IMG/VR virus record: IMGVR_UViG_3300037789_000055
Coordinates: 14,819 to 78,818 of that record
Strand: one strand, 5' to 3'
From: a virus
Taxonomy: Duplodnaviria > Caudoviricetes
DNA length: 64,000 nucleotides
Shown here: piece after piece, positions 40,459 to 62,860 of the stretch
How positions within the stretch are numbered: position 1 is the stretch's first letter
Layout of the letters: the number at the start of each line of letters is the position of its first letter
Notes under the pieces: generated by a model
What the model was told of the DNA's origin: nothing
Seen by the model: the letters and a program-made list of their open reading frames with translations, nothing else
The model's database searches: none
Made by a program: the position numbers and the translations under genes

Positions 40459-40488
40459 ATGATCCTTCCGGATAAGGGGGGGGGTAGA

Positions 40489-40797
40489 TTAGTCTTGGAA
40501 CACTCTCCCTGAGATCCCATCATCAAGGTATGCTCCTTCACCCTGTGTGGCCATGATCCGGGCCGGGAACCGGATAGTAAACCCCTGGATCTGGATCTGC
40601 CCGAGGGGTTGACCCTCCGCGTCAGAAACCCAGATTGGCGCCAGTTCTCTGGTTGCCCTACGAAGCATCGGCAGGGCCCGATAGGCTTCTTGGACGTTCG
40701 TGTATTCGAGGACCATTGGGCAGGGAATGTCGTTGTGAAGGAAGCTGTAGCGAAGCCGCTCCAACGCTATGCTTATCTCTGCAATTGGATCGTTCAT
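40489..40797 (-). CDS. Hypothetical protein, 102 aa
   Basis: Coupled ORF. Confidence 0.55.
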   Translation of the reverse strand: MNDPIAEISIALERLRYSFLHNDIPCPMVLEYTNVQEAYRALPMLRRATRELAPIWVSDAEGQPLGQIQIQGFTIRFPARIMATQGEGAYLDDGISGRVFQD

Positions 40798-41507
40798 CGG
40801 TTATTCCTCTCTCTGATCTGTCGATCTCGACGGTCTTGCCGGCTCTCGATTGGGGCATCCAACTCCTCCCCTCGGGCAAATCGACGAAGCACTGTCGCTC
40901 CGAGGCTCTCAAGGGGGAGAACAATCAGATCGTCGATCGAGAATTTCAACAGCTCTGTGGTCAGTTTCTGAAAAGGTGGACGGATCACCACCTCTGGTTT
41001 ACCCGTAACCAGGACCGTCCGAGGACTGTAATCCGCCATCCTGGCGAGTGTATCCAGAAGTGGTTGGGCCTTCTGGTCAGCTTGAACAAGGACCAGAGGT
41101 TGGATGTTACTGCTCCGCAGTTCCTTCTCAAGCTCCTTCAGCTTCATCATCCAGATCGGACGTACCACAGGGTAGATCGGAGAACTCATCCTGGAGAGGA
41201 CTGCAAGGTGCCGTCCCAGGTCATCCCTCTCATCCTCGAGAAAGAACAGGTTCTGCCCAGCAGGTTTGGGAACCGGAAGCATCACCTGAGTAACCGGATC
41301 TTTCAGGATCCTCTGGAAAAATTCCCAGTGGACCCGATCCGGGACCGGCGCCGCGGCCGGGATTAAGTGGTTGCACATTCCCCGAGCGACCTTAAAAGGG
41401 CACTCACCCTTCAGGCCAACGAAGTTGCTTCCGCGGCGTCCCTGGCAGAGCCAATAGACTCCTTTCTCTTGGTAGAGGCCGTAAGCCTCGACGAGTTTTT
41501 CGACCAT
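40794..41507 (-). CDS. Hypothetical protein, 237 aa
   Basis: Coupled ORF with no recognised motif. Confidence 0.55.
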   Translation of the reverse strand: MVEKLVEAYGLYQEKGVYWLCQGRRGSNFVGLKGECPFKVARGMCNHLIPAAAPVPDRVHWEFFQRILKDPVTQVMLPVPKPAGQNLFFLEDERDDLGRHLAVLSRMSSPIYPVVRPIWMMKLKELEKELRSSNIQPLVLVQADQKAQPLLDTLARMADYSPRTVLVTGKPEVVIRPPFQKLTTELLKFSIDDLIVLPLESLGATVLRRFARGEELDAPIESRQDRRDRQIRERNNR

Positions 41508-41680
41508 TATTTCACACCTGTTTCAACAGAGGGCAGACTCTGGAGATACCGAAGCGCACAACGCCCTGCAAGCGTCGGCTTGGAGGACAGGTGCTCCAGT
41601 GCAAACTTCGTCGACGGTCTACGTTTTCGACGATGAGAGGACACCAGGGTCCAGAATTGTTTCAGATCGTCAAGGATCAT
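41507..41680 (-). CDS. Hypothetical basic protein, 57 aa
   Basis: Hand-translated MILDDLKQFW...TGVK*; ATGA and TAATG overlaps at its two ends. Confidence 0.6.
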   Translation of the reverse strand: MILDDLKQFWTLVSSHRRKRRPSTKFALEHLSSKPTLAGRCALRYLQSLPSVETGVK

Positions 41681-42138
41681 GATCCCTCCCTCAGTAGCTC
41701 CGATACAGTGGTCCCCGTATAGGATGCGATGTCAATTAGATCCAGCAGCTCGATCGGGCTCGTACCCTTCTCGATCTTCCGGATACGGATCATGGACCTC
41801 TCCAGATCATTCGCGGCTTCAAAGAGCTCGATCCCATGGTCCATCCGGTAGGTGTAAAGACACAGCCCAATCCGAACATGCACTTGGCTGATGGCCTGCT
41901 TGTCGGTCAGTTTCTTGTACGCCCGGCGAGGGATCTTCCTCACCTTCAGGATCTGTTTGATCCGTTTTTCGGACAGCCCATAGGTCCGAGCCAAATGATC
42001 GACCTCCTTTCCGGCAAGATACTCCTCGCAGATGTCTGTGTCTCTGGAATTTCGATCCCTCATTCTATGACTTTCGTGCTCGACGGAACTCAACCTGTGG
42101 TTGGTGTGTCCCAAATGTGTCTCAGTTTCTGTCGTCAA
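41677..42138 (-). CDS. Two-HTH transcription regulator (Mor-like plus XRE-like); repressor candidate
   Basis: VDHLARTYGLSEKRIKQIL and LFEAANDLERSMIRIRKIEKG...IELLDL. The true start may be ATG 42063. Confidence 0.7.
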   Translation of the reverse strand: MTTETETHLGHTNHRLSSVEHESHRMRDRNSRDTDICEEYLAGKEVDHLARTYGLSEKRIKQILKVRKIPRRAYKKLTDKQAISQVHVRIGLCLYTYRMDHGIELFEAANDLERSMIRIRKIEKGTSPIELLDLIDIASYTGTTVSELLREGS

Positions 42139-42362
42139 GATGGAGATTGATCCACATTCGACAGAAACAGCTCTGTTTTTTATAGTGCAATTTCAGAGGG
42201 TTAAGATTTTGCGAAACCGAGATCCACAAAATTTGTAATCAGGGGGTCGGGGGTTCGAGTCCCTCGACCGGCACCATTTAACACCCTCAGACTGCACGAT
42301 TTATTCTCAGCTGTTCTTCAAGAATCCTCCTCCTCTTTTGCTGTGTGTCCAGGAGTGTGTCC
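42104..42362. mobile_element. attP: core plus arm-type direct repeats
   Basis: GTGTGTCC at 42104, 42343 and 42355 (plus ATGTGTCT at 42115), flanking a tRNA-derived core next to the integrase 3' end. Confidence 0.8.
42233..42276 (+). other. att core = 3' half of tRNA-Thr(UGU); not a complete tRNA
   Basis: TTGTAATCAGGGGGTCGGGGGTTCGAGTCCCTCGACCGGCACCA covers the anticodon loop, T-arm with GTTCGA, 3' acceptor strand and CCA. There is no 5' half upstream. Confidence 0.88.
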
Positions 42363-43385
42363 GGACAATTCCGCCACGGCCCGGTGAGCAGCAGCTGTAT
42401 CGAGGTGGGCGTACCGCTCAACCATCTGGAGCGAAGCATGCCCCAGGATACTACGGAGGGTCATGAGATCCCCCCCACGTTGAACCCACCAAGAGGCGAA
42501 CGTATGCCTAAGGTCATGAAACCGAAGGTTTTCCAGATTGGCTTCGACTCGAGCCCTTCGGAAAAATCCTCGAAAGCTATGGTAGGGTACAGGTGGGGTG
42601 CCACGACTGAACACCCAAGGTGAGGGATCCCGATGACACCACTCGAGGAGTGTGTCCGAGAACTCTGGGAGAAGAGGGATGATCCTGTCCCTCTGCGACT
42701 TGGTGTATTCTCTCGGAAGTTGAATTTCCCCGTGCCCTCCTCGGGTCCAGTTAATCCACGCCTTCTGGAACTCACAGATCTCGCCGTGTCGCATCCCGGT
42801 GTAGACCGCGGTTGTGATGACCATCTTCTGCCAGGGGAGCCGGCAGTGGGTTCTCAGGCGCTCGTATTCATCGTGGGTCAGGTACCGCTCCCGGCGTCGT
42901 TCTTTCAGATGCCGCTTCGAGTAGCTCATGATCGGATTGACCTCGGGGGCTCCTGTCATCTCCACCTGGGCATAGGTGAAGACCGTTGAGAGAAAGGCAA
43001 GATCCCGACGAACACTGGTGTCAGAGACACTCCGCCGGCGGTCCATCACGAACTCTTTGATCCCAGGCAGATCGATCTCGGCAAGGGAAAGCCCTCCGAA
43101 ATAGGGGTCCACTGCCTTGAGCGAATTCAGATACCCCTCGACCGTCTTTGGCGCCAGGTTCTTTCCCCGGATGTCGAAGAAGCTCACGACGACCTCCTTG
43201 AAGGCTAGTTGGGCCCGACGTGTGTATACTTCCTCGAGGATCTCCCAGGCGCGGGCTTCGTCCTCTGTGCCAGAAGACTGTCGTACCTTTCGTCCATCTT
43301 CTTCACGATACTGGATCTGCCAGAAGGAGCTCCTCTCGCGACGGTAGACTCGGGCACCGGGGATCCGGGATCGATCAACTGACAT
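42318..43385 (-). CDS. int: Tyrosine integrase, 355 aa
   Basis: YTGMRHGEI, FHDLRH, LGHAS and RYAH catalytic residues; N-terminal arm-binding-like WQIQY. Confidence 0.95.
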   Translation of the reverse strand: MSVDRSRIPGARVYRRERSSFWQIQYREEDGRKVRQSSGTEDEARAWEILEEVYTRRAQLAFKEVVVSFFDIRGKNLAPKTVEGYLNSLKAVDPYFGGLSLAEIDLPGIKEFVMDRRRSVSDTSVRRDLAFLSTVFTYAQVEMTGAPEVNPIMSYSKRHLKERRRERYLTHDEYERLRTHCRLPWQKMVITTAVYTGMRHGEICEFQKAWINWTRGGHGEIQLPREYTKSQRDRIIPLLPEFSDTLLEWCHRDPSPWVFSRGTPPVPYHSFRGFFRRARVEANLENLRFHDLRHTFASWWVQRGGDLMTLRSILGHASLQMVERYAHLDTAAAHRAVAELSGHTPGHTAKEEEDS

Positions 43386-43552
43386 GATGGCTGCTTTCGC
43401 TTGAGTATCCAGCGGAGGACTTCCTCGGTGTCAAACCGGAAGCTTCGGCCGATACGATAACATGGGATGATACCCTGAACCGCCCACCGATGGATGGTTC
43501 TGGGTGCAAAGCTGATCAATTCAGCAACATCTCTTGTCGTGATGAGTTCCAT
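43205..43552 (-). CDS. xis: Excisionase-family (MerR-like HTH) protein
   Basis: LITTRDVAELISFAPRTIHRW...IPCYRIGRSFRFDTEEV; 3' part overlaps int. Confidence 0.8.
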   Translation of the reverse strand: MELITTRDVAELISFAPRTIHRWAVQGIIPCYRIGRSFRFDTEEVLRWILKRKQPSCQLIDPGSPVPESTVARGAPSGRSSIVKKMDERYDSLLAQRTKPAPGRSSRKYTHVGPN

Positions 43553-43603
43553 AACATCCTCCCGCGGATATTTGGAATAGGTGACCTATCCAGAAGGATA
43601 GTT

Positions 43604-43828
43604 CTAGAGGCCTGTGACAATTTGCCGGTAGGGGAAGCTCTTGGGGTCGGCTTTGACCTTCTGATTGAAGGCCCGCCCCACACTCTCGGCGGTGAGGATC
43701 TCGTCGAAAAGTGCCTTCGGAACCGCATCATAGTGGTATTCGGCACCGGTTTTGAACCGTACCCGCATCCCGGTTTGATCGTGGGCCATAGCGGCAATGT
43801 TGCTGCTGACTACCTCTTGGAATTGCAT
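43604..43828 (-). CDS. KTSC-domain protein, 74 aa
   Basis: VSSNIAAMAHD...VRFKTGAEYHYDAVP...AESVGRAFN. Confidence 0.85.
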   Translation of the reverse strand: MQFQEVVSSNIAAMAHDQTGMRVRFKTGAEYHYDAVPKALFDEILTAESVGRAFNQKVKADPKSFPYRQIVTGL

Positions 43829-44091
43829 TAGTTGTCCTCCCTTGGCCAATATCCCAGGCACTGAGGTTGAAGGGGATGTCCCCCGAAGTAGAATCCCTCG
43901 GGAGCTTTCTGTTTCAGTCTTTCGACAGTTTCGTTGAACTGATCAACGGCCTCTTGGGTGTCCCACCAAGGAGACCCTGGTGGTGGAAAAACAAGGTCTC
44001 GTCCTCGTAGCAATCGATCCAGGGAGACGAGACAATCACGAAGGTCCCCTTGGAATTCCACCAGGATGGTGTTGGTGTGGATGGTTCTCAT
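43828..44091 (-). CDS. Hypothetical protein, 87 aa
   Basis: Ends KAPEGFYFGGHP...CLGYW, a recurrent small phage protein pattern. Confidence 0.65.
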   Translation of the reverse strand: MRTIHTNTILVEFQGDLRDCLVSLDRLLRGRDLVFPPPGSPWWDTQEAVDQFNETVERLKQKAPEGFYFGGHPLQPQCLGYWPREDN

Positions 44092-44104
44092 TTCCGGAAA
44101 TATA
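44087..44104. promoter_or_regulatory. Operator-like palindrome, copy 4 (overlaps start codon of 43828..44091)
   Basis: Perfect core ATTTCCGGAAAT at 44090-44101. Confidence 0.65.
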
Positions 44105-44145
44105 TGCCCCCTTTTGAGTTGACAGTCCAGAGTTCGATTGTCGAT

Positions 44146-44174
44146 TTGACTTGATTTCCGGAAATCAAAATAGT
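44146..44174 (+). promoter_or_regulatory. Putative sigma70 promoter of mucR with a perfect 18-bp operator (copy 5) in the spacer
   Basis: TTGACT(44146-51)-17 nt-AATAGT(44169-74); TTGATTTCCGGAAATCAA at 44151-44168. Confidence 0.7.
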
Positions 44175-44206
44175 AGAGCCTTCATCGAAACCTAGAGGAG
44201 AGCACC

Positions 44207-44584
44207 ATGACCGACGAAAAAATCGTGATGAAAGCCGGGGAGATCGTTGCCGCCTACGTCAGCCACAACAGCATGCCTCCTGAGAACGTTCCGGTCTTTC
44301 TGGAAACCCTAACCCACGAAATGGTCAGGCTGATCGGTGTCGAGGAAACTCCTCCTCAACCAGCCGTGCCAATCGAGGAAAGCTATGGTGATGACTTCAT
44401 CATCTGTCTGGAGGATGGGGCCCGGGTGACGCTGCTGAAACGCTACCTAGCCAAGTACCACAACATGACACCTGAGGAGTATCTCGAGAAGTGGGGTCTT
44501 CCAGAGGACTACCCGATGGTTACACCGGAGTATTCCCGCCGGAGGTCATCGATCGCCAAGGACAACGGCCTGGGTCGAAACTGA
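44207..44584 (+). CDS. mucR: Ros/MucR family transcriptional regulator, 125 aa
   Basis: EIVAAYVSHN, PAVPIEES, IICLEDG...LKRYL...H, TPEEY..KWGLP.DYPMV.P.YS..RS.IAK..GLG. Confidence 0.95.
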   Translation: MTDEKIVMKAGEIVAAYVSHNSMPPENVPVFLETLTHEMVRLIGVEETPPQPAVPIEESYGDDFIICLEDGARVTLLKRYLAKYHNMTPEEYLEKWGLPEDYPMVTPEYSRRRSSIAKDNGLGRN

Positions 44585-44767
44585 CTGGGTGGGTTCCCCA
44601 TTCTGATCCATAGGAACATTCCGTCCATCGAACGTGACTGTGTATCGGTCTCCATGGTGATACGCTGAATACCACGCCATGATCTGCGGAACCGACGCGA
44701 CGTCACACTCCACGAAAGTGGTTTTTGGTGTCGCGTCCGCGTTATTGAAAACGAGCCGGGGCATCAT
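44546..44767 (-). CDS. Hypothetical protein, 73 aa
   Basis: GGAG RBS; convergent overlap with the mucR 3' end. Confidence 0.55.
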   Translation of the reverse strand: MMPRLVFNNADATPKTTFVECDVASVPQIMAWYSAYHHGDRYTVTFDGRNVPMDQNGEPTQSVSTQAVVLGDR

Positions 44768-45610
44768 TCACTCCTGTTCTACGAGGGCGCGGAGGAAGGC
44801 GTCAATCATGGCAAAACCGGTATTTCGGTAAGGCCCCGCCTTCCTGGAGAGTTCTGAAAGTGCCCGTGCTATCTCCAACCCCGTCAACGGGGCCATGTTG
44901 AATTGTGATAGTATCCTGGCATCGTGGTCAGCTTGGGCGGCGGCATCTGCTTCCGCAAAAGAGTTGCATATCTGCGGCTTGTCCCCCAAATCCACACTGG
45001 GCTTTTCCAGATGGTATTGTCCATCTATCTCGAAAATGTTGTAGTACCCAAGCACAGACTGTGCGTCATGTAGACCTTTGATGTCGTCTCGTTTGTTGAA
45101 CACCAGAGGCTTGACCTTCGGTACGACCGGGGCCGGGGTAGGGGTCGGGGGGATGAGGGCGCGGATTGCCTTGGCGTGCTTGTGGCAATCTTTTGCGTAT
45201 TGCGTCCAATCGCTGCGAGGGTTGCTTGGCTCAATGAGGGTTGCCGCCGCCTCGATCCCTGCGGCAAAGCCTGCGTCCCGCAGCCGCTCGTTTTCCTCCC
45301 GAAGCTTGATTACCTTGGCCCGTTCTGCTGCGATGATGGCATGTGCGCCTTCCGCCTCGGCCTTGAAGGAGTCGCGCTCGGCCAGGAGGGCAGCGGCAAC
45401 ATGCCCTAGCTCTTGCATTTTGCGTCCTGTTTCTGCACGAAAAGGGAACCCATTGTTCATGTTTGCAGCGTCGGTGAGTACCTCGAAAGCCAGCTGCTCC
45501 ACCTCTTCCTTGCTAGTGTACGGCCTCATCTCATGCCCGACAAACCGCGCATCGCGGTGTCTGGTATGGTAGTCGTGAGGGCTTTCGTTCTCGTAGGTGT
45601 GGTCGGTCAT
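44768..45610 (-). CDS. Hypothetical mosaic protein, 280 aa
   Basis: Coiled coil, Pro linker, and the VKPLVF...AAQADHDARIL module recurrent in alphaproteobacterial phages. Confidence 0.65.
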   Translation of the reverse strand: MTDHTYENESPHDYHTRHRDARFVGHEMRPYTSKEEVEQLAFEVLTDAANMNNGFPFRAETGRKMQELGHVAAALLAERDSFKAEAEGAHAIIAAERAKVIKLREENERLRDAGFAAGIEAAATLIEPSNPRSDWTQYAKDCHKHAKAIRALIPPTPTPAPVVPKVKPLVFNKRDDIKGLHDAQSVLGYYNIFEIDGQYHLEKPSVDLGDKPQICNSFAEADAAAQADHDARILSQFNMAPLTGLEIARALSELSRKAGPYRNTGFAMIDAFLRALVEQE

Positions 45611-45613: not shown

Positions 45614-46144
45614 TCAGTCCTCACAGACAGGGTAGCCTTGATCGAGAAGCTCATAGGCGGTGTAGTGGCGCTGACGGAGATAGGTGATTTCACCGCTCTC
45701 GAACTGCGCAAAGAGTTCTTCACCGAAGGTGGGTAGGAACGCATCGAGGTAGCCCGACCACAGACGGCTACGTGGGCCGGCGGGGTGATGAAAGGACAGG
45801 ATCACATGGGGGTCAAGACACGAACCGGGTACAACATAGTTGCCGGCCAGAAGAGCAAGGACCATGGTCCCTGAGGAGAACCAACGACCGGACACCCGGA
45901 ACGGCCCTTGATCTGCGATGCGCAGAAAGTAGCGCGCGGCGGGGCCGGTGGGGCCACCTCCTGAGTGATGCGGGGCGGGGTGCTGGTGAGCCGTGCCGTG
46001 CAGAATGGTTCGGCCCTGGGCATCAGTGTCAGCAAAAGCCGACCAGCCGAGCAACAGTACACCGACGATGATCCAGAAGCAGACCCCCCAGATGAAGCCG
46101 CGCACGAAGCCGGAGCCATGGGGGTCACGTTGTTCTTTCGACAT
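45614..46144 (-). CDS. Hypothetical membrane-anchored protein, 176 aa
   Basis: N-terminal TM helix; hairpin RBS upstream. Confidence 0.6.
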   Translation of the reverse strand: MSKEQRDPHGSGFVRGFIWGVCFWIIVGVLLLGWSAFADTDAQGRTILHGTAHQHPAPHHSGGGPTGPAARYFLRIADQGPFRVSGRWFSSGTMVLALLAGNYVVPGSCLDPHVILSFHHPAGPRSRLWSGYLDAFLPTFGEELFAQFESGEITYLRQRHYTAYELLDQGYPVCED

Positions 46145-46164
46145 AATATCCTCCTACGGATAAG

Positions 46165-46973: not shown

Positions 46974-47676
46974 AGGACATCTCCTGGTCGGGGTCGGTTC
47001 TCAACGATCCCTTCGCCTTGAGACCCACCACCACCGGCGAGGGATCCAAGAAACGAAGGTCATGTTCATCGCCGTCAATCACGGGATACCCGAACAACTT
47101 CCCTTCCCTCTGGTCCGTGACGGCCGCGACGTTCATTCCGGCATCCAACACCTCCCGCGCCTGATGCTCATTCTTCTCGTGCAGAGAGAACGTCAGATGG
47201 TAGTTCGAGGGCCTCCCCCGAAACATCCGCTTGAAGTGCTTGGTGTAGTCGTAGAACTGTGTCTCCGGAAAATCACCCATGATTTCCGGAAATTGACGTT
47301 CCCACTGGATGTCGCTGAAAACGTTCAGACGGATCGCTGCGTCCTGGTTCCGCTGGATCTCCCCCAGGAGCTTGGTCATGAAGCCCTTTCGGTCACGGAA
47401 GAACCAGATGGTGCGGAAGATCCGGCCCATCTGGACCTGATGCCGAAACCCATGGCCAGAGGAGAAGATACAGTGCTGGGTACAGTTGGGAGACCGGGAG
47501 GCACAGACCTCGTGGCCTGAAACGTCCGCGGGGGCCAGGCTCAACCCCAACCCCCGCCAGTTGAATTTCTCGGCTTTGCGAAGCTTGACATTCTCAGCCG
47601 CCAGAAGTTTCTGAGGGCGCCAGCCAGCTTCGAACCTTGCCTCGGCTTCTTGCCGGGCGAGTGCGTATTTTTCCAT
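46936..47676 (-). CDS. GP88-family (gene product 88-like) protein, 246 aa
   Basis: CASRSPNCTQHCI Cys cluster, IRLNVFSDI, FYDYTK, YHLTFS and DGDEHDLRFLD. Confidence 0.75.
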   Translation of the reverse strand: MEKYALARQEAEARFEAGWRPQKLLAAENVKLRKAEKFNWRGLGLSLAPADVSGHEVCASRSPNCTQHCIFSSGHGFRHQVQMGRIFRTIWFFRDRKGFMTKLLGEIQRNQDAAIRLNVFSDIQWERQFPEIMGDFPETQFYDYTKHFKRMFRGRPSNYHLTFSLHEKNEHQAREVLDAGMNVAAVTDQREGKLFGYPVIDGDEHDLRFLDPSPVVVGLKAKGSLRTDPDQEMSYVTEIFKLPAAA

Positions 47677-47700
47677 ATGATCCTCTCGGATGAATGTGAG

Positions 47701-50192: not shown

Positions 50193-50481
50193 TGGAGACC
50201 TCCCCTGCAGCCATTGAACTGCAGACGATCTGACCGGCCGTGGCCGGATCGATATCCAGTATGTACAGGTTCAGTCGATCTGCTTCATCCATGGCCTCGT
50301 CGTAGGACTCGACGGCGAAATGGGTTCCACTGATCGGGGTGTAACCAGGGATGTTGGCCTCAGCGACACACAGACCCCAGTGGTTCGAGTCCACCTGAGC
50401 CGCGCTGAAGGCGAACATCCGGCCCTGAAAGTTGTTCTGGACGTCAGTCACGACGTCCGGTCCAAGTTGGCGTTTCTTCAT
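50179..50481 (-). CDS. Hypothetical protein, 100 aa
   Basis: Start at ATG 50481 after the hairpin RBS ATATCC-GATGGA-GGATAT. Confidence 0.65.
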   Translation of the reverse strand: MKKRQLGPDVVTDVQNNFQGRMFAFSAAQVDSNHWGLCVAEANIPGYTPISGTHFAVESYDEAMDEADRLNLYILDIDPATAGQIVCSSMAAGEVSNAEI

Positions 50482-50507
50482 GATATCCTCCATCGGATAT
50501 TTTGGGA

Positions 50508-50876: not shown

Positions 50877-51042
50877 CGCAGATCTCCATCAGGGTGCTAT
50901 CGACCTCCCAGATGTCGAGGTCATCGTCATTTTCCCCGTCGAGCTGGGCCTGAACGGTGGCTCTGGCCTCCTCCAGACTGTTGGCGGTGGTTCGGACGCT
51001 GTAGTAGAGCGTCTGTTGGAGACGTACATCGAATTCCATCAT
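50869..51042 (-). CDS. Hypothetical acidic protein, 57 aa
   Basis: Start at ATG 51042 after a hairpin RBS. Confidence 0.6.
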   Translation of the reverse strand: MMEFDVRLQQTLYYSVRTTANSLEEARATVQAQLDGENDDDLDIWEVDSTLMEICDE

Positions 51043-51043: not shown

Positions 51044-51298
51044 TTATCCTCTGTCGGATTGATAGTCGTGGTCGTCGATCTCGATCCGATCTTCGTGGAT
51101 CTCGACGTTGAGGGGAGAGTCTGCCCCCTTGTGGTAGCAGTGGACCCGGATCCGACCATCCTCGTGTTCAATCCAGACGTGGGCGCCAGTTCCAAATCCG
51201 ATATCGATCCGATCGAATTGAGTGGTCACCTCGGCGGTGGTACTCTGGCCGTTGTCCTGCCAGTCTTCCAGGGTTCGGGCCTCAACTGTCATAGTCAT
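51044..51298 (-). CDS. Hypothetical protein, 84 aa
   Basis: GGAGG RBS before ATG 51298. Confidence 0.6.
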   Translation of the reverse strand: MTMTVEARTLEDWQDNGQSTTAEVTTQFDRIDIGFGTGAHVWIEHEDGRIRVHCYHKGADSPLNVEIHEDRIEIDDHDYQSDRG

Positions 51299-52760: not shown

Positions 52761-53274
52761 CCCCTCCGAGATTTGCCGGCTTCCGACACTTGGTGTCAGA
52801 GTCGGTCACTCGTCCAAAGTTCATCCCATGGATCACAAGATCCCCCCTCACGAGGGATCCCTCAGGAACTTCGAAGTGTATTGTACTGTTGCTGCCATCG
52901 AACTTGATCGCGATGGTGTAGGGGGTGACTTCGGTCAGGTCCTCGGGCTTGAAGGTCTTGGTCTCACCCGAGGGTTTGATTTCGAGGACCATCTCGCCGC
53001 GGCTGTTGCGGGCCAACAGAGTCCCAAAGTGGCCGTCCTTGGTTTCGTAAAGAGTGGGGGTGTTGTCTGACATAATAACCTCTTCTGGTTGGGGGTCGTA
53101 GTGGGTGAATTCGCTGAAATGGCGCCACTTGCACCGACCGTTGGCCCAGTGCATGGAGCTTTCGTATTTGAGCAGAGCCTGCTCCTGCTGCTCTCGGATC
53201 TTCATGATCTGTTGGGGGGATCTACCTGTGAGCAGCCTGACCCGGTCTCCGATGCGGAAATGGGTTACGGGCAT
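52723..53274 (-). CDS. Hypothetical protein, 183 aa, with two KOW/SH3-like parts and a possible internal start at 53073
   Basis: FRIGDRVRL and LVRGDLVIH; hairpin RBS before ATG 53073. Confidence 0.6.
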   Translation of the reverse strand: MPVTHFRIGDRVRLLTGRSPQQIMKIREQQEQALLKYESSMHWANGRCKWRHFSEFTHYDPQPEEVIMSDNTPTLYETKDGHFGTLLARNSRGEMVLEIKPSGETKTFKPEDLTEVTPYTIAIKFDGSNSTIHFEVPEGSLVRGDLVIHGMNFGRVTDSDTKCRKPANLGGGGLRKLLSEKIV

Positions 53275-53459: not shown

Positions 53460-54159
53460 CTTGGGTACCCTCCAGGTTCAGCTCCGGGAGGCGTTCCCAG
53501 AAACCTTCGGGGATCGGGACATCATCACTGATACGGTGGTCGTAGATCGTGACCTCAGTGCCTCGGTACTGGATCGTGAGCCAGTCAGAGTCAGCGTAGG
53601 TGCAGGGTTGGACCGGGTAGCCGGCGGCTTCGGCCACCGAACGCTCCAGCCCGAAGCTGCAGTCGTCCTGCAGAAAGTAGTCCGGATCGATGACTTTGAA
53701 GAGCTTCGCGTCGGTGTAGCCGGATCGGACGTCACACCCACCATGGACCTGAAGCAGGACGTACTCCTCGTCGTTGATCTCGACCCGAGACCCCTGCAAC
53801 GTCTGGTCAAAGCAGTTGTCCCAGTTGTAGGTGTTCCAGGCATCTGCGACATCGGCGCCGATTGCGTTCAGAAATTCGTCATGCTCGGCCGTGATCCCCC
53901 AACACAGTTCGCCATCCCATGTCTCGTTCGGGATCGCGTTGAAGGCCCGGCAGACCACGTCCTCCTCAAGACAGGCGTCGAGGTGCTGGACAGTGTTGAC
54001 GGTGATCTCAGGCCAGTCGTACTTCGTGGACAGCTTGGCTTGGGGCTCGGCCGAAAAATCTCGACTGGCGTTGTGAGCGTAGGCCCTACCATAGATGCTC
54101 CCACTGTCGATGATCGAATGCGCCGTGGGTTCCACGAACATATGGGTCAAAGTGGTCAT
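53443..54159 (-). CDS. Hypothetical acidic protein, 238 aa
   Basis: Start at ATG 54159 after a hairpin RBS; DSGSIYGR and LQVHGGCDVRSGYTD motifs. Confidence 0.65.
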   Translation of the reverse strand: MTTLTHMFVEPTAHSIIDSGSIYGRAYAHNASRDFSAEPQAKLSTKYDWPEITVNTVQHLDACLEEDVVCRAFNAIPNETWDGELCWGITAEHDEFLNAIGADVADAWNTYNWDNCFDQTLQGSRVEINDEEYVLLQVHGGCDVRSGYTDAKLFKVIDPDYFLQDDCSFGLERSVAEAAGYPVQPCTYADSDWLTIQYRGTEVTIYDHRISDDVPIPEGFWERLPELNLEGTQDAIEH

Positions 54160-54190
54160 GTGATCCTCCATCGGATACAGTCTGTGGTTA

Positions 54191-55545: not shown

Positions 55546-56102
55546 TGGACAATCTCCTTGATTTGAGAGCCACGCAGACGGACGGCCTGACCGGTCTTGA
55601 CCGACCGGTAGACGGACCGGGTTCCGGGCCACTCGATCTTCTTGAAGAGATCCCCATACGGTTCCCAGGGTTCATGCAGTCGGATGGTGTCCCCCATTTT
55701 CGGCTTCGGCCGGCGGGCATAGACCTGGCAGCGTTCCCGCCATTCATTGGCGTAGTCACTGGTCGTGGGGGACAGGACCTTCAGCAGTGACAAGGGGGCC
55801 TTGGATTCAACCGGGCCCATGCATTCGGTCATGTCCTTGTAGCCCCAGGAGCCATCACGGTCCTTTCGCGTCAGGAAGATCGCGGCCCAGGTCTGGGCGC
55901 CGGTTTCTGGATCGGGTTCATGGTCGCTGTAGGGAAGGATCTGACCCGGCTTCGGGGTCGACTTGACAGCGACGTAGTGGACGTTCCCAACAACAGAGTG
56001 CTTGACGACTTCTGTGGAATAGGTCTCGGTCTCGAACGTGAGCATGCGGGCGACCTCGGCCTTCGGGTCACGCGGCGGGTGGCGATGAAATGTCCAGCCC
56101 AT
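55539..56102 (-). CDS. Hypothetical protein (DUF6927-like), 187 aa
   Basis: MGW start, WGYKDMTECMGP and EWRERC; hairpin RBS. Confidence 0.6.
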   Translation of the reverse strand: MGWTFHRHPPRDPKAEVARMLTFETETYSTEVVKHSVVGNVHYVAVKSTPKPGQILPYSDHEPDPETGAQTWAAIFLTRKDRDGSWGYKDMTECMGPVESKAPLSLLKVLSPTTSDYANEWRERCQVYARRPKPKMGDTIRLHEPWEPYGDLFKKIEWPGTRSVYRSVKTGQAVRLRGSQIKEIVQC

Positions 56103-56130
56103 AGTATCCTCCATCGGATAGGGGTTTTGG

Positions 56131-56418: not shown

Positions 56419-56427
56419 AGTATCCTC

Positions 56428-56862
56428 CTAGATTTTGTCGTGGGATCGGAAGCTGTATTCCGTGGTGTGTCCGACGATGATGTGGTCATGCAGCGTGATC
56501 TCGAAAACGTCCGCGGCACTCTTGATCTTGCGGGTCATCTTGAGATCCTGAGAGCCGGGAGTTGGGTCGTTCGAGGGGTGGTTGTGAACGAGGATCATTG
56601 CACTAGCGTCGAGCAGCAGTGCCTGCTTCAGGACCTCCCGTGGGTAGACCGTGACGTGGTCGATGGTCCCACTGTTCAGATGACAGTCTTCAATCAACCG
56701 GTTCTTCCGGTCCAGGTAGAGGACATGAAACTCCTCCCGCTTCGGGTTTCGGATCACCAGGTGGCAGTAGTCGATCAGCTGGTCGTAAGACGAGATGACC
56801 GGGTTCTGGTTCAGGAACGTCGCCAGGAACTCCCGGGCTTCCAGGACAGTGTTCTGGTTCAT
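56428..56862 (-). CDS. radC: RadC-like JAB-domain protein, 144 aa
   Basis: REEFHVLYLDRKNRLI, GTIDHVTVYPREV, ILVHNHPS and LHDHIIVG. Confidence 0.9.
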   Translation of the reverse strand: MNQNTVLEAREFLATFLNQNPVISSYDQLIDYCHLVIRNPKREEFHVLYLDRKNRLIEDCHLNSGTIDHVTVYPREVLKQALLLDASAMILVHNHPSNDPTPGSQDLKMTRKIKSAADVFEITLHDHIIVGHTTEYSFRSHDKI

Positions 56863-57197
56863 GCCACCTTCACCAGGTTGCCGAAGAGGTTGACGTAGAA
56901 GCTGGTGTTGTTTTGGAGCCACTCCAAAGTCACAGTCGGCTCGATGCTGTTCCCTTCGTCGTCGCAGCCGAGGACCAGGCCCCTCCCAGCAAGGGGCTGA
57001 TGGGTGTCATGGATCCTGAACAGATCACTGTGGTTGAAAAGACCCTCGTCATCGACGTAGACCCCATCACCGTGTTCGTTGATCCGGGCGACATCAAAAT
57101 ACGAGGCTCCGATCAGATCATAGATCTGTTTGTAGTCGCCGTTATGGTCGACTTCTGTGATGGTGCAGTCATGCGGATTGATCAGGTAGGCTTTCAT
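56859..57197 (-). CDS. Hypothetical protein (DUF3846-like), 112 aa
   Basis: VYVDDEGL...PLAGRGLVLG; hairpin RBS. Confidence 0.65.
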   Translation of the reverse strand: MKAYLINPHDCTITEVDHNGDYKQIYDLIGASYFDVARINEHGDGVYVDDEGLFNHSDLFRIHDTHQPLAGRGLVLGCDDEGNSIEPTVTLEWLQNNTSFYVNLFGNLVKVA

Positions 57198-57225
57198 GGT
57201 ATCCTCCATCGGATATCGGTTTAGG

Positions 57226-57955: not shown

Positions 57956-58492
57956 TTACCTCCACTTCCGATAGCGCCGTACTCCAGCTTCTCGGGCTTG
58001 TTCTGCGGACAGAAAATTCTCCCCATCATCGTATCCAAAGGTCCCTCCTCCCAGGTATGAGACTTCAGTCCCGGCCATCAGTTTCAGGCTCGGAGAGATC
58101 ATGAGATGGTTCTGGGTCACCCACTTCCATTTCTTGAAGGCGTTCCGGCTCCAGCGGTCGATCTCTTCCTGATCTGGCCGCTCTTCGAGTAACCCCAACC
58201 GGTGCATGATCCGGCGGGCAGTCATCATTCGACGACGATCCATTGGTTGGGCCGAAAGTCCATAGATCCTCAGTGCTCGATGAGGATCCCTTGAGGTGCT
58301 CAAATTATGAAGCATATTCTGGGTCGGGCTCGGCTTGTGTTTGATCCCGGCCCGTTCATTGATCAGCTGGTGCCGCATCTTCTTCAGGATCTGGTCCGCT
58401 TCCTCGATCGGGCCGGTTTGCGGGACCCACTCTCCAAGCGCCCGTTTGGCCTTCAGAGCGAAATGGGTCCGCTTCTGGTGAAGGCTACTCAT
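57956..58492 (-). CDS. Hypothetical basic protein, 178 aa
   Basis: TAATG coupling. Confidence 0.55.
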   Translation of the reverse strand: MSSLHQKRTHFALKAKRALGEWVPQTGPIEEADQILKKMRHQLINERAGIKHKPSPTQNMLHNLSTSRDPHRALRIYGLSAQPMDRRRMMTARRIMHRLGLLEERPDQEEIDRWSRNAFKKWKWVTQNHLMISPSLKLMAGTEVSYLGGGTFGYDDGENFLSAEQAREAGVRRYRKWR

Positions 58493-58710
58493 TAGATCAC
58501 TCCCGCCAGAATGGTTGCGGACTGGACAGTGTTGGTGCCGCAGCTCTCACACCACCCCTGATCTTGATCAGGCTCGTACTCCGTGGAGTAGTCACAACCC
58601 TCGTTGATGCAGATCGCCGGCATCAACCCGTCGAACATGTAGTCTTCGATCAGGTCCTCGGGGGCTTGGTACCCCCAGTCGGTGGTCAGTGTTTGCAGTT
58701 TACTGGTCAT
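58492..58710 (-). CDS. Small zinc-ribbon protein, 72 aa
   Basis: CINEGC...WCESCG; hairpin RBS. Confidence 0.65.
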   Translation of the reverse strand: MTSKLQTLTTDWGYQAPEDLIEDYMFDGLMPAICINEGCDYSTEYEPDQDQGWCESCGTNTVQSATILAGVI

Positions 58711-59014
58711 GATATCCTCCAACGGATGTGGGTGTTTCCCCTCACAATTCGAACTCCTGATAAACCACACTTGGTGAATGGGTGTTTCTCCAGTTGGAGA
58801 TTTCATTCTTCCAAACTTCCCGGGCCGCGAGGGGGGTGGAGTATGGTCCAGACTTTTGGAGCCGATTGAATGGTTCCAGGGGCCTCATGGGGTGATATAT
58901 CTGGACCTCATACAGGAGATAATACCTGGCGGTTGTATCCTCGGAACCTTGACCACCCCCTTCCGTGATAGGTGTTTGCAGTTTTCTGGCCATGATATCC
59001 TCCAACGGATGTGG
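58689..59014. repeat. 43-bp direct repeat (41/43 identical) covering the RBS hairpin and first codons of two adjacent genes
   Basis: 58689-58731 versus 58972-59014. Confidence 0.9.
58742..58993 (-). CDS. Hypothetical protein, 83 aa
   Basis: Start at ATG 58993 after a hairpin RBS. Confidence 0.55.
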   Translation of the reverse strand: MARKLQTPITEGGGQGSEDTTARYYLLYEVQIYHPMRPLEPFNRLQKSGPYSTPLAAREVWKNEISNWRNTHSPSVVYQEFEL

Positions 59015-59290
59015 TTAGACGCGGGTCACCTCGAATACGTGGAAGACCATCCAGTCGAGGAAGACTGTGTCGATGATCTCGGAATTCTGAGGCACCGTCC
59101 CTCCGGTCGGGACGACTTGGACAAACCGTCTCAGGTTGAAGACATCCGAGCGAGGATTAACTGTGACCCAGATCACGATGTCCTGGCCCTGCACCCCCGC
59201 TGAGATGATCCTGGCGGGGGAAGGGAGATCGAACGATTGCAGATGAAACCCATCGGCGAGGGTGAACTTCCAGATGGTCAGATCGGTCAT
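59015..59290 (-). CDS. Hypothetical protein, 91 aa
   Basis: TIWKFTL...IISAGVQ...IVIWVTVNP...VPTG, a recurrent small phage family. Confidence 0.65.
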   Translation of the reverse strand: MTDLTIWKFTLADGFHLQSFDLPSPARIISAGVQGQDIVIWVTVNPRSDVFNLRRFVQVVPTGGTVPQNSEIIDTVFLDWMVFHVFEVTRV

Positions 59291-59646
59291 TTCATCACCT
59301 CGTCTTCAAAGCAGTCGATTGCCACCTTGAGATCGTGCATCCTGTTCATGAGATCGTCGGCTTCCTCGTGGAGCAGTTCCCGGGCCCGGGTATCAACGGC
59401 GTTGGCGAGTTCAAGAAACCCAGTCTGCTCCTCGATCTGTTTTTCCATCGAAGTATACCAGTGGGAGAGAAGCTCTTCGAAAACCTTGCCGGGGATCTCG
59501 ACCCCGTTGATCTTCACTTCGGCTGTCAGTTTCCGGGTGTCCATCCACTCAGGGGTGTCCACGATTGTTCGCGCCACATCCGCATCCTGAAGAACCAGGT
59601 GGCCCGTCAGAACAGACGAGTCACCGATGGAGAAAGTGTAGCTCAT
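59287..59646 (-). CDS. Hypothetical protein, 119 aa
   Basis: Coupled ORF. Confidence 0.55.
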   Translation of the reverse strand: MSYTFSIGDSSVLTGHLVLQDADVARTIVDTPEWMDTRKLTAEVKINGVEIPGKVFEELLSHWYTSMEKQIEEQTGFLELANAVDTRARELLHEEADDLMNRMHDLKVAIDCFEDEVMK

Positions 59647-59897
59647 TTGGGATACCTCGCTGGTACTGTTTCTCGGATGTGAACCAGAGCGGCTTCGATA
59701 TCCACACGGAGTTGCTCTGTGTCTTCACGGTTGAAGGTCATCTCCAGCTTCGAGCTCCAGGTGGCCGAGAAGACCAACCCAAACTCGTATGCAAGGAGGT
59801 CCAGTAGGGCCTCCTCCTGGTAGTCATTCAGTCGCCGGGCCTCACCCTGGAGGGTGACGATCAGAAAGGGTGATGGCTCAATCGAAATGCCTTTCAT
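59643..59897 (-). CDS. Hypothetical protein, 84 aa
   Basis: Coupled ORF. Confidence 0.55.
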   Translation of the reverse strand: MKGISIEPSPFLIVTLQGEARRLNDYQEEALLDLLAYEFGLVFSATWSSKLEMTFNREDTEQLRVDIEAALVHIRETVPARYPK

Positions 59898-60370
59898 GGC
59901 CAGACCTCCGTGAATTCGGGGTATTTCAGTTTCAGTCTGGCCATGTGGTTGATGACCCCCTCCTCACCCCAGCCTCGGCGACGGACGGTCAGGGTCTGGT
60001 TCTTCCAGTCGGTCAGGAAGTCGTTGTCGATGATCAGGCCCTCGTACTGGCTCCAGGCCACAGCGCAGAGTCCAATGTCCACGTACTTGTTCTGGCGCTT
60101 AGGGGAGACGTAGCTCGTGATTTCACAGATGTTGATGTTGCCCCGGCGCCAGGTGGCGTGGATGTGGTCGTGGTCATAGTCGCTGTCGTCATGCGACTGT
60201 TGAACAAACCCCATCTCCTCGAGTTTGAGGAACTTGGTGGGCAGTGCCACGTCGATATCTGAGACCGGTCGATTGAGGAGCATGTCCCGCCAGAAGCCTC
60301 CATAGATCACGGCCCCCGGCAGTTCCTTCGCCACTTCCTCGGCGATGTGGTAGGCGATGGTCAGTTTCAT
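59894..60370 (-). CDS. Minimal nucleotidyltransferase (poly(A) polymerase/CCA-adding head-like), 158 aa
   Basis: IYGGFWRDMLLNRPVSDIDV; VDIGLCAVA. Confidence 0.8.
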   Translation of the reverse strand: MKLTIAYHIAEEVAKELPGAVIYGGFWRDMLLNRPVSDIDVALPTKFLKLEEMGFVQQSHDDSDYDHDHIHATWRRGNINICEITSYVSPKRQNKYVDIGLCAVAWSQYEGLIIDNDFLTDWKNQTLTVRRRGWGEEGVINHMARLKLKYPEFTEVWP

Positions 60371-60585
60371 GGTGTCACCTCATAGTGATGAGAGTTCCCG
60401 ATGTAGGATCGGGTCAGCCAGCCGCGGTTGTAGAGATCGAGGCACACGTTCCGAACGGTCCCGATCGGCAGGCCAGTGGCGACGGCGATGTCCTTGGCCC
60501 GGGTCGCAGCTGGATGGGTTTCCAGATATGCAGTGATCAGGTCCTCAGAGGACTTCATCTGCACTCCGGCTTCACGCAGTTTCAT
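60367..60585 (-). CDS. Winged-helix DNA-binding protein, 72 aa
   Basis: RAKDIAVATGLPIGTVRNVCLDLYNRGWL. Confidence 0.75.
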   Translation of the reverse strand: MKLREAGVQMKSSEDLITAYLETHPAATRAKDIAVATGLPIGTVRNVCLDLYNRGWLTRSYIGNSHHYEVTP

Positions 60586-60839
60586 ATTCCCATGATCCTT
60601 TTGAAGTTGCTCTGAACGTGGTGCTCACCTGCTTTGAACCCCCGCCCATAGCCGGCTGAGAAGGCCTCGTAGAAGTGGGTCAGGAGGTGAGGCGCCTGTT
60701 CGAGGGACAGGGTCGGGATCGAGAAGATATGCCACTTGTTGTGGAGCCAGACCTCCGTCAGCATCTCATACCGATAGAGTGTCCATTCCTCGTATCTGTC
60801 GATCTCGGGTTCAGGTGGCATCAGGTCGTTGGGTCTCAT
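60582..60839 (-). CDS. Hypothetical protein, 85 aa
   Basis: Coupled ORF. Confidence 0.55.
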   Translation of the reverse strand: MRPNDLMPPEPEIDRYEEWTLYRYEMLTEVWLHNKWHIFSIPTLSLEQAPHLLTHFYEAFSAGYGRGFKAGEHHVQSNFKRIMGI

Positions 60840-61044
60840 TGGGTGGTACCACCGTTGTTTGGATTTCGGTTCGGATCGTGGCGGGGAGGTGGGTCAGTTT
60901 GGCCCACTCCCGAGCTGCCCGGTCGTCGTCACCATGGGTGACCGAAGGCCAGTAATCCTCAGGGATCCGGATTTGGGTTCCAAAGGGGTCCGGACATTGG
61001 AGGATCACTGAACGGATTTGGTCCCGGGTGATGGTTATACCCAT
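60811..61044 (-). CDS. Hypothetical protein, 77 aa
   Basis: Coupled ORF. Confidence 0.5.
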   Translation of the reverse strand: MGITITRDQIRSVILQCPDPFGTQIRIPEDYWPSVTHGDDDRAAREWAKLTHLPATIRTEIQTTVVPPNETQRPDAT

Positions 61045-61487
61045 GGTGCTTCTCCGGCCATGACCCGCCGAACTGCGGCCGCAGCCTGGGCCGGGGTGCA
61101 GTTGTTGGGGGCGAGACTCTGGTCAAAGAGTTCATGACCCACCCACCATCTCTCCTGTGATATGTGGAGCCCCAGGAAGTCAGCCGCGGTATTCCGGATA
61201 CTGGTCCAGAGGGTGGTCATCTTGGCCTGCGCCTCGAGGGAGGGGAACAGTTGTCCCTCCGGGGCCTGGCTCATCAGATAGGCCGCACCGGCCATACAAC
61301 AGGCCGTTCCGCAGTCCGGTGTTGGATTGGGGTGGGCGTCGATGTATTCCTGGAGCGTGAGATAGTCGGTTTGGTCATAGACATCCTGATCGGTAAGAGG
61401 ACAGACACCGACGTTCATGTCGAAGATGACGTGGGGAGCACCGGCCTCCAACCACTGGGCCAGTTTTTCGAGGTTCTCGAGGTTCAT
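61035..61487 (-). CDS. Hypothetical protein, 150 aa (paralogue of 62861..63193)
   Basis: FDM...CGTACCMAG...LF...TPAQA. Confidence 0.65.
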   Translation of the reverse strand: MNLENLEKLAQWLEAGAPHVIFDMNVGVCPLTDQDVYDQTDYLTLQEYIDAHPNPTPDCGTACCMAGAAYLMSQAPEGQLFPSLEAQAKMTTLWTSIRNTAADFLGLHISQERWWVGHELFDQSLAPNNCTPAQAAAAVRRVMAGEAPWV

Positions 61488-61489
61488 TG

Positions 61490-61925
61490 GAAGATCTCCA
61501 GTTCAGAGGGTTGGTGCTTGATGGGTGTTGATGACGAACTCACCGGACATCCCCATGGAGTCGTACAGATCCCGCTGTAGGATTTTGGCCATGGTGGTAT
61601 TGGGTGAGAACACTTGTTGTTCCACCCGCCAGCAATCTTCGAGCTCGGACTGAGGAACCCGAAACTCCACAGTGAAGATGTGGATGGTTGCTTCAGGGTC
61701 AGGCAGGGGGTCGAAATAGAAGACACAATCCGGATGGGCCATCATCCCCTCTTCAATCGAGAGGTAGTCTGCTGACGAGCCCCGTTCTCCTGAGGGTCCA
61801 TCCGAAAATTGCCATTCAGTGTCCCCGATATCAGCACGACCGGCGTGGGCGTCCGCGTCAGTGACGATACCCTGCACGATCCAGATTTCACGTTTTTTAG
61901 ACATCGTCGAAGATCTCCAGTTCAG
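61490..61925. repeat. 17-bp direct repeat GAAGATCTCCAGTTCAG flanking one gene
   Basis: Identical copies at 61490-61506 and 61909-61925, each containing a GGAG RBS on the - strand. Confidence 0.85.
61503..61904 (-). CDS. Hypothetical protein, 133 aa
   Basis: Start at ATG 61904 after GGAG. Confidence 0.6.
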   Translation of the reverse strand: MSKKREIWIVQGIVTDADAHAGRADIGDTEWQFSDGPSGERGSSADYLSIEEGMMAHPDCVFYFDPLPDPEATIHIFTVEFRVPQSELEDCWRVEQQVFSPNTTMAKILQRDLYDSMGMSGEFVINTHQAPTL

Positions 61926-62151
61926 GATCGGGGTCAACGTCCACGTCGAAGAGGACGTAGTCAGTGGTTTGGGTGGAGAGGATCTGGGTCAGGATCGGGC
62001 AGTTTTCGACGTTGGCCTGTTTCCAGATGAAGAAGCCAGCGTCGTTCGAATAGGCAACGGTCATCCCCGCCTTGGTGATGTCGGACAGGACCATCCTGAT
62101 CTCGTCAGCTGGGAGATGACACAGTGCGATCTCGGAAAAGGTTCTCGTCAT
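61897..62151 (-). CDS. Hypothetical protein, 84 aa
   Basis: ATGA overlap with the ctrA stop; LCHLPADE. Confidence 0.6.
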
Positions 62152-62834
62152 GCCACGACCTGTTCCGGTTCGGGCTCCTGCAACAGATACCCACGACCCC
62201 AAATCGTATGGATGTGCCGGCCGGCGGTGCCGAGCTTCTTCCGCAACTTGCAGATGAACACGTCGATGATCTTCAATTCCGGCTCGTCCATGCCACCATA
62301 AAGGTGGTTGAGGAACATCTCTTTCGTCAGCGTCGTACCCTTGCGCAGGCAGAGCAGTTCCAGCATCTGGTATTCCTTGCCGGTCAGATACACCTGGCGG
62401 TCGTTGACCTTGACGGTCTGGGAGTCGAGATTGACGCTGATGGGACCGGTCTGGATGATGGCCTGGGCGTGGCCCTTGGACCGGCGGATGACCGCGTGGA
62501 TGCGACCGATGAGTTCCTCCCGGTGGAATGGTTTGGTCAGATAGTCGTCGCCCCCGAGACCAAAGAACTTGATCTTGCTTTCGGTGCTGTCGTCGCCGGT
62601 GAGGGCCAGGACCGGGGTGTTGATACGATCCACGCGGATCTGGCGCAGTACGTCATGCCCTGAGATGTCGGGCAGGTTCAAATCGAGCAGTACCAGGTCA
62701 TAGTCATAGAACTTGATGAGATCGACGCCCTCTTCCCCCAGATCGGTCGAGTAGACGTTGAAGCCAGCATGAGTGAGCATGGTCTCGACGCTACGGGCGG
62801 TGTTGGGATCGTCTTCGATGTGCAGAATTCGCAT
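62148..62834 (-). CDS. ctrA: CtrA cell-cycle response regulator (full length), 228 aa
   Basis: [21 protein letters not shown] (D51), [14 protein letters not shown] and [50 protein letters not shown], which are diagnostic CtrA sequences. Confidence 0.97.
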
Positions 62835-62860
62835 GTTTTCCTCCAGCGGAAATGTGGTGA

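Follow-up and report, generated by a model that had tools for sequence, protein, structure and literature searches.

A recurrent start-associated word in the non-structural arm of a phage genome

Why should genes of different families, scattered over one arm of a phage genome, begin with nearly the same short word? The question arises in IMG/VR virus record IMGVR_UViG_3300037789_000055 (here G000), a 78,818-bp genome with direct terminal repeats. We analysed the 64,000 nucleotides from base 14819 to base 78818 of this record (the window; positions refer to it unless called genome positions). An element of 14–18 nt with the form (T)ATCC / G..GGA / GGAT(A) stops 3 nt short of the ATG in many genes of the window, including ctrA. 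An earlier note on the sequence had read twelve such strings as a covarying hairpin that sequesters the Shine-Dalgarno (SD) sequence of twelve genes. All twelve strings are indeed found on the minus strand, each 1–3 nt before an ATG. Eleven precede real gene starts, which belong to the SNF2 helicase, GP88, DUF6927, DUF3846 and CtrA genes and to open reading frames (ORFs) called by codon usage; the twelfth (53077–53090) is intragenic. Here we establish the anatomy, placement, non-randomness and conservation in relatives of this word. We conclude that it is, on balance, probably a standardised translation-initiation cassette, associated with start codons at the heads of gene blocks.

Anatomy and placement of the word

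In general form the element reads x-TCC, loop, GGA-y, three bases, ATG. The distance between the 3' arm and the ATG is constant, and the loop is 4, 5 or 6 nt long with the arms kept. Information content is limited to positions −18 to −3 plus the ATG itself, with none on either flank, so this is a discrete word and not the shared end of paralogous genes. Loops are mostly GNNGGA or GNRA, as had been noticed before: across the clade to which G000 belongs, 16 of 19 hexaloops and 13 of 14 tetraloops fit these patterns, and there are some pentaloops. The 12 nt before the 5' arm are C/A-rich, with 8 % G compared to 29 % in the genome. Where an upstream ORF can be identified, the median distance from its stop codon to the 5' arm is about 9 nt. 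In 18 of 27 such cases the distance is −1 to 15 nt, which bears out the observation that several copies closely follow an upstream stop.

A covariance model was built from 19 hexaloop copies. The search with this model, which the earlier note had asked for, recovered every copy, added two unlisted ones (43555–43570, and genome positions 1613–1626) and located the family in related phages as well. The genome thus holds 13 good copies, namely 11 of the original twelve, one more in the window and one outside it. Rfam gave no match at gathering score in the 64-kb window.

Several comparisons show that the word is not a product of chance. The 14-mer occurs five times in the genome, on one strand only, and is absent from a reversed control. 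Copies with at most two mismatches to it number 10 on the coding strand, all 10 followed by N3-ATG, and two on the other strand, neither so followed. We also counted start-proximal hairpins, defined by a stem of at least 4 bp, a loop of 4–6 nt and an end 2–4 nt before the start codon. Twenty were observed compared to 4.7 ± 2.1 in shuffles that kept the 10 nt adjoining the start fixed and permuted the 20 nt before them; none of 2000 rounds reached 20. This comparison with shuffled leaders had been set beforehand as a refuting test, and the element stood well above it. Twelve of the 20 hairpins belong to the ATCC/GGAT family. A genome-wide hairpin habit was ruled out, as the eight hairpins outside the family represent only a marginal excess over the 3.9 expected.

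Scans of other genomes gave little beyond the phage lineage itself. The 14-mer yielded mostly single chance matches in IMG/VR, and the sole contig with multiple copies led to a relative, G001. Among 185,579 species genomes, a 17-base version had 105 single matches. This is near chance, indicating that the word is not a host-wide ribosome-binding site (RBS). Among these matches, only one scaffold, from Psychromarinibacter, also carries homologues of two genes of the phage.

The word has a specific place in the genome. Our codon-usage gene caller puts the structural module on the plus strand and about 41 kb of small genes on the minus strand, in a block that extends from the right end to near genome position 38 kb. 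No gene of the structural module carries a copy; the element is not phage-wide, as had been proposed, and is confined to the non-structural arm. Within that arm, genes that overlap their predecessor lack the word, and all nine genes that follow a gap of 20–31 nt carry it. Copies also follow gaps of 51, 77 and 476 nt. Every copy is on the coding strand, with a constant 3 nt between it and the ATG, so the claim of a position-locked element tied to the translation starts of many genes, ctrA included, holds good.

Consensus scans of the junctions found 3 σ70 promoter-like sites compared to 7.8 expected, and 16 terminator-like sites compared to 15.2 expected. Gaps of 20–31 nt are in any case too short to leave room for promoters or terminators. 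Placement at gaps that lack both argues that the word marks the first gene of a translationally chained block, inside transcripts of the non-structural arm that would be long.

Our preferred explanation, a standardised initiation cassette, would act at the RNA level within long polycistronic early and middle transcripts. Non-structural genes are mostly chained by overlapping stop and start codons, and the 20–31-nt interruptions are filled by a single module: a stop codon, a G-poor C/A-rich linker, a predicted hairpin of 4–6 bp, a 3-nt spacer and the ATG. The 5' arm (xTCC) of the hairpin would pair with the last GGA of a strong SD sequence, half of which would be held in the loop. In this way, the first gene of each block would receive its own strong and standardised RBS. 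The hairpin would be easily displaced by a 30S subunit, or by a ribosome terminating just upstream, and so would tune or insulate initiation rather than block it.

Hairpin formation and access to the Shine-Dalgarno sequence

Pairing of the arms would give a hairpin of −3.5 to −5 kcal/mol. The stem is present, at −3.5 to −4.5 kcal/mol, in the minimum free energy fold of 11 of the 13 60-nt contexts, and RNAalifold predicted the 4-bp stem unaided. Sequestration of the SD sequence, which the earlier note had taken to be the function of the hairpin, finds no support in folding. The ensemble energy needed to open positions −13 to +3 is the same for leaders with and without the word in all five genomes tested (median of 7.6 kcal/mol compared to 6.7 for other genes in G000, p 0.61; no difference in four relatives). 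The mean pairing probability of the SD region in word leaders is, if anything, lower. Hence neither a less accessible RBS ("sequestration") nor a more accessible one ("insulator") is seen.

Predicted energies of pairing with the anti-SD were calculated with an assumed 16S tail sequence. On this basis the SD:anti-SD duplex has about −10 kcal/mol, and the hairpin is about half as strong. Predicted anti-SD pairing is stronger for genes with the word than for other genes in G000 (−10.0 compared to −7.8 kcal/mol, p 0.03), with a similar result for G001 (p about 0.03). Part of the spacer (ATC or GATC, as in GGAGG..ATC) can extend the pairing with the assumed tail. The TCCG on the 5' side of the SD sequence is invariant and is unable to pair with that tail. 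The possibility that the 5' arm extends pairing with 16S rRNA was ruled out by geometry, as AUCC lies on the wrong side of the SD sequence.

These energies also bear on a coupling switch, in which the hairpin would close the SD sequence until a ribosome terminating upstream melts it, making translation of each block dependent on the preceding block. The uniformly short gaps are consistent with such a switch, as are the 18 of 27 copies whose upstream stop lies within reach of a terminating ribosome. However, −3.5 to −5 kcal/mol is small against the SD:anti-SD duplex, the opening energy is not above that of other leaders, and copies stand after gaps of 51, 77 and 476 nt too. We therefore regard a coupling switch as quite unlikely. 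SD-occluding hairpins that serve coupling or thermosensing, such as those of MS2 coat/replicase, ROSE and fourU elements, have the stability needed to block initiation. The present word resembles them in that a pyrimidine stretch (UCC) pairs with the SD sequence, but it differs in its stability of about −4 kcal/mol and in a predicted opening energy that is not raised.

Whether the arms are paired in the RNA was approached through covariation. In about seven lineages, the outer A-T pair is swapped for T-A. The swap is found in the ctrA leader, G005 and G007, twice in the metagenome contig L372, in three leaders of Achromobacter phage JWF and in five copies in G009, where they stand beside three A-T copies in one genome. 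The outer pair is G-C once and C-G once. Overall it is Watson-Crick in 43 of 53 copies compared to about 49 % expected from the margins; an alignment fitted to the model, which overstates pairing, has AU in 45 copies, UA in 6 and GC in 2 at the varying pair. Unrelated contigs that share the core word served as a control; their outer bases pair at chance level, and a PolA query found no homologue in three such contigs. The fifth, outer pair is unpaired in most copies.

A number of observations weigh against a functional hairpin, and hence against the cassette as we describe it. Uncompensated variants are as many as swaps. When copies were gathered without any demand on the outer pair, the clade had 13 with a 3' base other than T, of which 9 were mismatched and 4 were paired, and the variant lineages that keep TCCG split into 5 paired and 5 unpaired. 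Three of the four core pairs are invariant, and the TCC-GGA pairing is untestable by covariation because SD function already fixes GGA. The RNAalifold covariation term is only −0.19, and the copies are related by duplication, so that the counts are not of independent events. Compensatory swaps alone are no proof of RNA structure either, since they preserve a DNA dyad too. G007 keeps a long linear word through ATGATG, with the fourth pair lost in half of its copies, which suggests linear conservation or the spread of copies. In addition, the unchanged RBS opening energy leaves no measurable benefit or cost from folding.

Therefore the claim that the stems covary survives in a weak form only. 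Some swaps do keep complementarity, but within the window only the ctrA leader departs from the common stem, and three of the four pairs never vary. We consider the covariation suggestive, and from sequence comparison and predicted folds the balance tips slightly towards a real RNA hairpin. That it forms in vivo and matters there is our inference.

The same swaps raise the question of a DNA-level dyad, a multi-copy, stoperator-like operator to which a dimeric protein would bind. As DNA, the arms make a perfect palindrome whose dyad is kept by A-T to T-A swaps, and the phage encodes the DNA-binding regulators CtrA, GapR and an excisionase-like helix-turn-helix (HTH) protein. On the other hand, the half-sites are variably spaced, by 4 to 6 bp, their asymmetric centre coincides with the SD sequence, and the fifth pair includes T.G wobbles. 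Orientation to the gene and distance to the ATG are also constant over all copies. On these grounds a DNA operator is unlikely, and we judge the stoperator-like arrangement to be highly improbable.

Relatives, known systems and possible readers

By helicase and PolA, G000 belongs to a large group of 75–85-kb siphophages that includes Achromobacter phage JWF (48 % helicase identity to G000) and Caulobacter phage Seuss; megablast of the phage against named phages gave no match. The word family was found in five IMG/VR relatives (G001 and G005–G008; PolA 61–70 %), with 4–10 copies each, and in the metagenome contigs L367 and L372. In the relatives it stands mostly at non-orthologous genes. The helicase leader also carries the word in G001, L367 and L372, and a degraded version in G008, though this is not so in all relatives.

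Each genome has its own version. Hexaloops prevail in G000 and G001, whereas G005, G006 and G008 favour a GNGA tetraloop followed by the spacer CAC. The preferred combination of loop and spacer is GATGGA..ATC in G000, GNGA..CAC in G005 and G008, and GAAAGGAACAC in G007, where the version is a longer linear word ending in ATGATG. A reader that accounts for this uniformity may be the ribosome alone or an additional factor.

Distant clades of the phage family have other start-associated words. In G010–G013 (L230–L244; whole genomes with 44 % GC), an exact 14-mer, GGAAATTGACG+ATG, occurs 16–20 times per genome, in both gene orientations; in G010 the count for its last 10 bases is 28. A preceding (C)AATT, which is able to pair with AATT(G), is present at about half of the 14-mer copies. 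Phage JWF (L350, 37596–78918) has three TTCC-N4-5-GGAA-TCA leaders.

Further repeated leaders were observed in the wider group. Many of the GGAAATTGACG+ATG copies in G010–G013 follow a GC-rich palindrome of the GGGGGCATGTGCCCCC type. Within about 10 kb on each side of PolA in L197, L181 and L161, start words are ATCGACG+ATG (4 and 3 called starts) and GGATTAACAA (3). JWF leaders also include a 15-bp palindrome, GGTTCG-TAA-CGAACC, with a central stop codon (about 6 copies), and a CAGCACACAGAC-GAAGGA word (about 5 copies). G004 (L128–L131; 37 % helicase identity) lacks the ATCC/GGAT word and has a recurrent TTAATCTAAAGGAAAT leader before several genes. In G005 and G008, leaders have long C-tracts and short palindromes of the GGGGCCCC type before the word (e.g. 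L211:11111–11135 and L221:7337–7361).

Genome-specific versions are what co-evolution with a sequence-specific reader would give, and they bring in the possibility of a translational regulon. In such a regulon, a trans factor (a CsrA-like repressor, a RegB-like nuclease or a small RNA) would bind or cleave the hairpin and switch the non-structural genes, ctrA included, together. The loop and spacer are uniform within a genome, the word is limited to one temporal or functional gene class, and other clades have invariant start words of their own, such as the 14-mer with its 16–20 copies. However, the phage has no match to CsrA (PF02599) or RegB (PF10715). Nor is any of the clade-conserved small proteins that were examined (GapR, KTSC, HD, RecU, a DEDDh exonuclease and MazG) known to read RNA sites. 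Tetraloop copies have neither GGA in the loop nor GGAG, and the coexistence of two stem variants in G009 argues against base-specific reading of the stem. A translational regulon is thus fairly unlikely.

The analogies on which the earlier note had drawn for a regulon do not fare well. CsrA/RsmA sites have GGA in the loop of short hairpins that overlap the SD sequence. Hexaloop copies are similar, with GGA at the 3' end of an SD-overlapping loop in 16 of 19, but the 14 tetraloop copies have GGA only in the stem. The T4 endoribonuclease RegB targets GGAG in early SD sequences (reviewed in PMC3014915). GGAG is present in the SD sequences of early genes that have the hexaloop form, but not in the tetraloop copies that are dominant in the relatives. 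Neither protein family is encoded by the phage, and at a third of the sites either the loop is without GGA or GGAG is missing entirely.

The closest known counterpart is the start-associated sequence (SAS) of cluster K mycobacteriophages (Pope et al. 2011, PMC3203893), to which the present word is an analogue and not a member by descent. In cluster K there are 11–19 copies per genome, 3–9 bp before start codons (PMC3203893). Many copies of a short word per genome are found in both systems (13 here, of which five share an identical 14-mer), close to the start codon, in one orientation, mostly before ATG and only in the non-structural arm. The genes concerned come from different families in both. 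Both words hold the SD core, and both have symmetric outer parts, GGG..CCC in the SAS and ATCC..GGAT here. The SAS is conserved beyond what pairing with 16S rRNA explains, and this may hold for the present word too, where the invariant TCCG is unable to pair with the assumed 16S tail but part of the 3' conservation can.

The differences are equally clear. The cluster K consensus GGGATAGGAGCCC is not matched, and there is no relation in sequence, phage lineage or host phylum. The word described here has a variable loop length, longer symmetric arms (4–6 bp) and some compensatory swaps, and no ESAS-like 17-bp inverted repeat or promoter lies upstream of it. Related clades of the present phage carry quite different words.

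The SAS has been on record since 2011 without a mechanism, its role is still undefined in PMC11373665 and PMC12699233, and the cases that we found described in the literature are from actinobacteriophages. A SAS-like element is now seen in an unrelated lineage, with a clearer hairpin architecture and with the word replaced altogether in sister clades. This suggests that phages standardise the translation signals of independently initiated genes in a general way. A bolder version, which we consider rather unlikely, is that JWF/Seuss-like siphophages of about 80 kb use clade-specific "start codes" read by a dedicated phage factor or a phage-modified ribosome, giving privileged or switchable translation to an entire class of genes, among them the hijacked cell-cycle regulator ctrA. 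The codes would include the ATCC/GGAT hairpins here, the invariant 14-mer ending in ATG in the GC-poor clade, and others elsewhere. If so, the SAS would be a general phage strategy, testable in cultured Proteobacteria, and not a mycobacteriophage curiosity. JWF is a cultured relative with three similar leaders and would allow a reading by the ribosome alone to be tested against one by an extra factor. For annotation, the word is already of use, as it reliably marks true start codons and the heads of gene blocks in these genomes.

The occurrence of the word at non-orthologous genes also fits a cassette junction, in which the word would serve as microhomology for swapping or duplicating early genes and recombination between copies would keep it uniform within a genome. 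The region around the word is hyperplastic, with homologues in relatives missing for most of its genes, both copies of a tandem duplicate carry it, and after a conserved KTSC gene G000 and G001 continue with different genes, each starting with the word. However, synteny breaks are no more common at word junctions than elsewhere (7 of 8 compared to 30 of 41 others in G001, p 0.66; p = 0.3–0.66 across four relatives), so the suggestion that copies act as recombination points gains no support. The lack of a signal in the four relatives is put down to their being too divergent. A word of 14–16 nt is also short for homologous exchange. The obvious parallel is the PeSL cassette of T4-type phages, a σ70 promoter with a terminator hairpin (PMC2839356, PMC4122927). 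Like PeSLs, the present word is a small repeated unit that sits between genes of a hyperplastic early region and has been proposed as a vehicle of modular shuffling, but it has no promoter, U-tract terminator or detectable link to synteny breaks. A role as a cassette junction is decidedly improbable.

Individual copies, neighbouring genes and host lineage

All copies in the window are on the minus strand and are described here from ctrA downwards. The word before ctrA (TTTCC / GCTGGA / GGAAA; 62837–62852, ATG at 62834; 35.1 bits, −4.0 kcal/mol) is the sole copy in the window with the outer pair swapped to T-A. Two copies precede an 83-aa ORF (58997–59010, ATG at 58993) and a 72-aa gene (58714–58727, ATG at 58710; 31-nt gap after the upstream stop). 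These are leaders of tandem paralogues, so the two copies are not independent. A tandem duplication at 58492–58993 involves a gene of about 75–83 aa together with its leader; the word is identical in the pair and the first dozen or so coding bases are nearly so.

Stems of 5 bp precede the DUF3846 gene (57200–57215, ATG at 57197; −4.5 kcal/mol) and the DUF6927 gene (56105–56120, ATG at 56102), each after a gap of 28 nt. A copy before a 238-aa gene (phrog_11344) lies at 54163–54176 (ATG at 54159; gap of 77 nt). A copy with the loop GACAGA is found before a 57-aa gene (51046–51059, ATG at 51042); the gap here is 1 nt, and the TAA of the upstream gene overlaps the 3' arm. The best score, 36.4 bits, belongs to a copy with a 6-bp stem before a 100-aa gene (50483–50500, ATG at 50481; gap of 26 nt).

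The GP88-family gene has a GAGA tetraloop copy (47680–47691, ATG at 47676), which is kept at the G001 orthologue, and a 176-aa gene has a copy at 46147–46162 (ATG at 46144; gap of 20 nt). The additional copy in the window (43555–43570, ATG at 43552; 30.3 bits) precedes a 115-aa excisionase-like HTH gene, and its fifth pair is a T.G wobble. Within 42318–43552, about 180 nt of the 115-aa ORF (43205–43552) overlap, in a different frame, with the long frame of the next gene; homology suggests that this downstream gene starts later, at a GTG near 43187. The last copy in the window, with a GGAA tetraloop, precedes the SNF2-type helicase (40462–40473, ATG at 40458).

Three other minus-strand sites resemble the word. 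The AACC/GGTT hairpin at 53077–53090 is outside the family and precedes Met68 of a 183-aa protein. Residues 4–167 of this protein align to positions 2–180 of phrog_36463, and because the match begins at residue 4 the hairpin is internal to the gene. As a result, one of the two covariation examples in the earlier note is lost. A possible variant with a long loop (ATCC, 14 nt, GGAT-CTC-ATG) at 33079–33113 precedes a 78-aa ORF; it is weak (13.2 bits, E 3.8) and may be of chance origin. A marginal half motif, ATCT-A-GGAGGAT-ACT-ATG, occurs at a 9-nt junction (56422–56433), where the upstream TAG occupies the place of the 5' arm.

Besides CtrA, the minus-strand block encodes the SNF2-type helicase, the GP88-family protein, PolA, GapR, RecU, an exonuclease and MazG. 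The CtrA is of the Rhodobacterales type (NF045991 equivalog, 364.5 bits compared to a cut-off of 350), from which we infer a Rhodobacterales host. The Psychromarinibacter scaffold with two homologous genes and an exact copy of the word also suggests such a host, and G000 is probably a phage of marine Rhodobacterales. Exact copies of the word are present on scaffolds 105 and 80 (L310 and L288) of the Psychromarinibacter sediminicola (Rhodobacteraceae) assembly, and scaffold 105 has homologues (50 % and 43 %) of two G000 genes. The scaffold 105 region may be a related prophage or a contaminating phage, and gives a hint of the host lineage.

The ctrA gene itself (62148–62834) has no homologue in the five closest relatives (tblastn, E 1e-5) and is thus an accessory gene private to G000 within the clade. 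The 43–64-kb part of the window consists mostly of genes that are likewise unique to G000 compared to these relatives. Close to ctrA, at 61487–61904, adjacent genes of 133 aa and 150 aa have a common leader end, CTGAACTGGAGATCTTC, and are probably another tandem duplicate.

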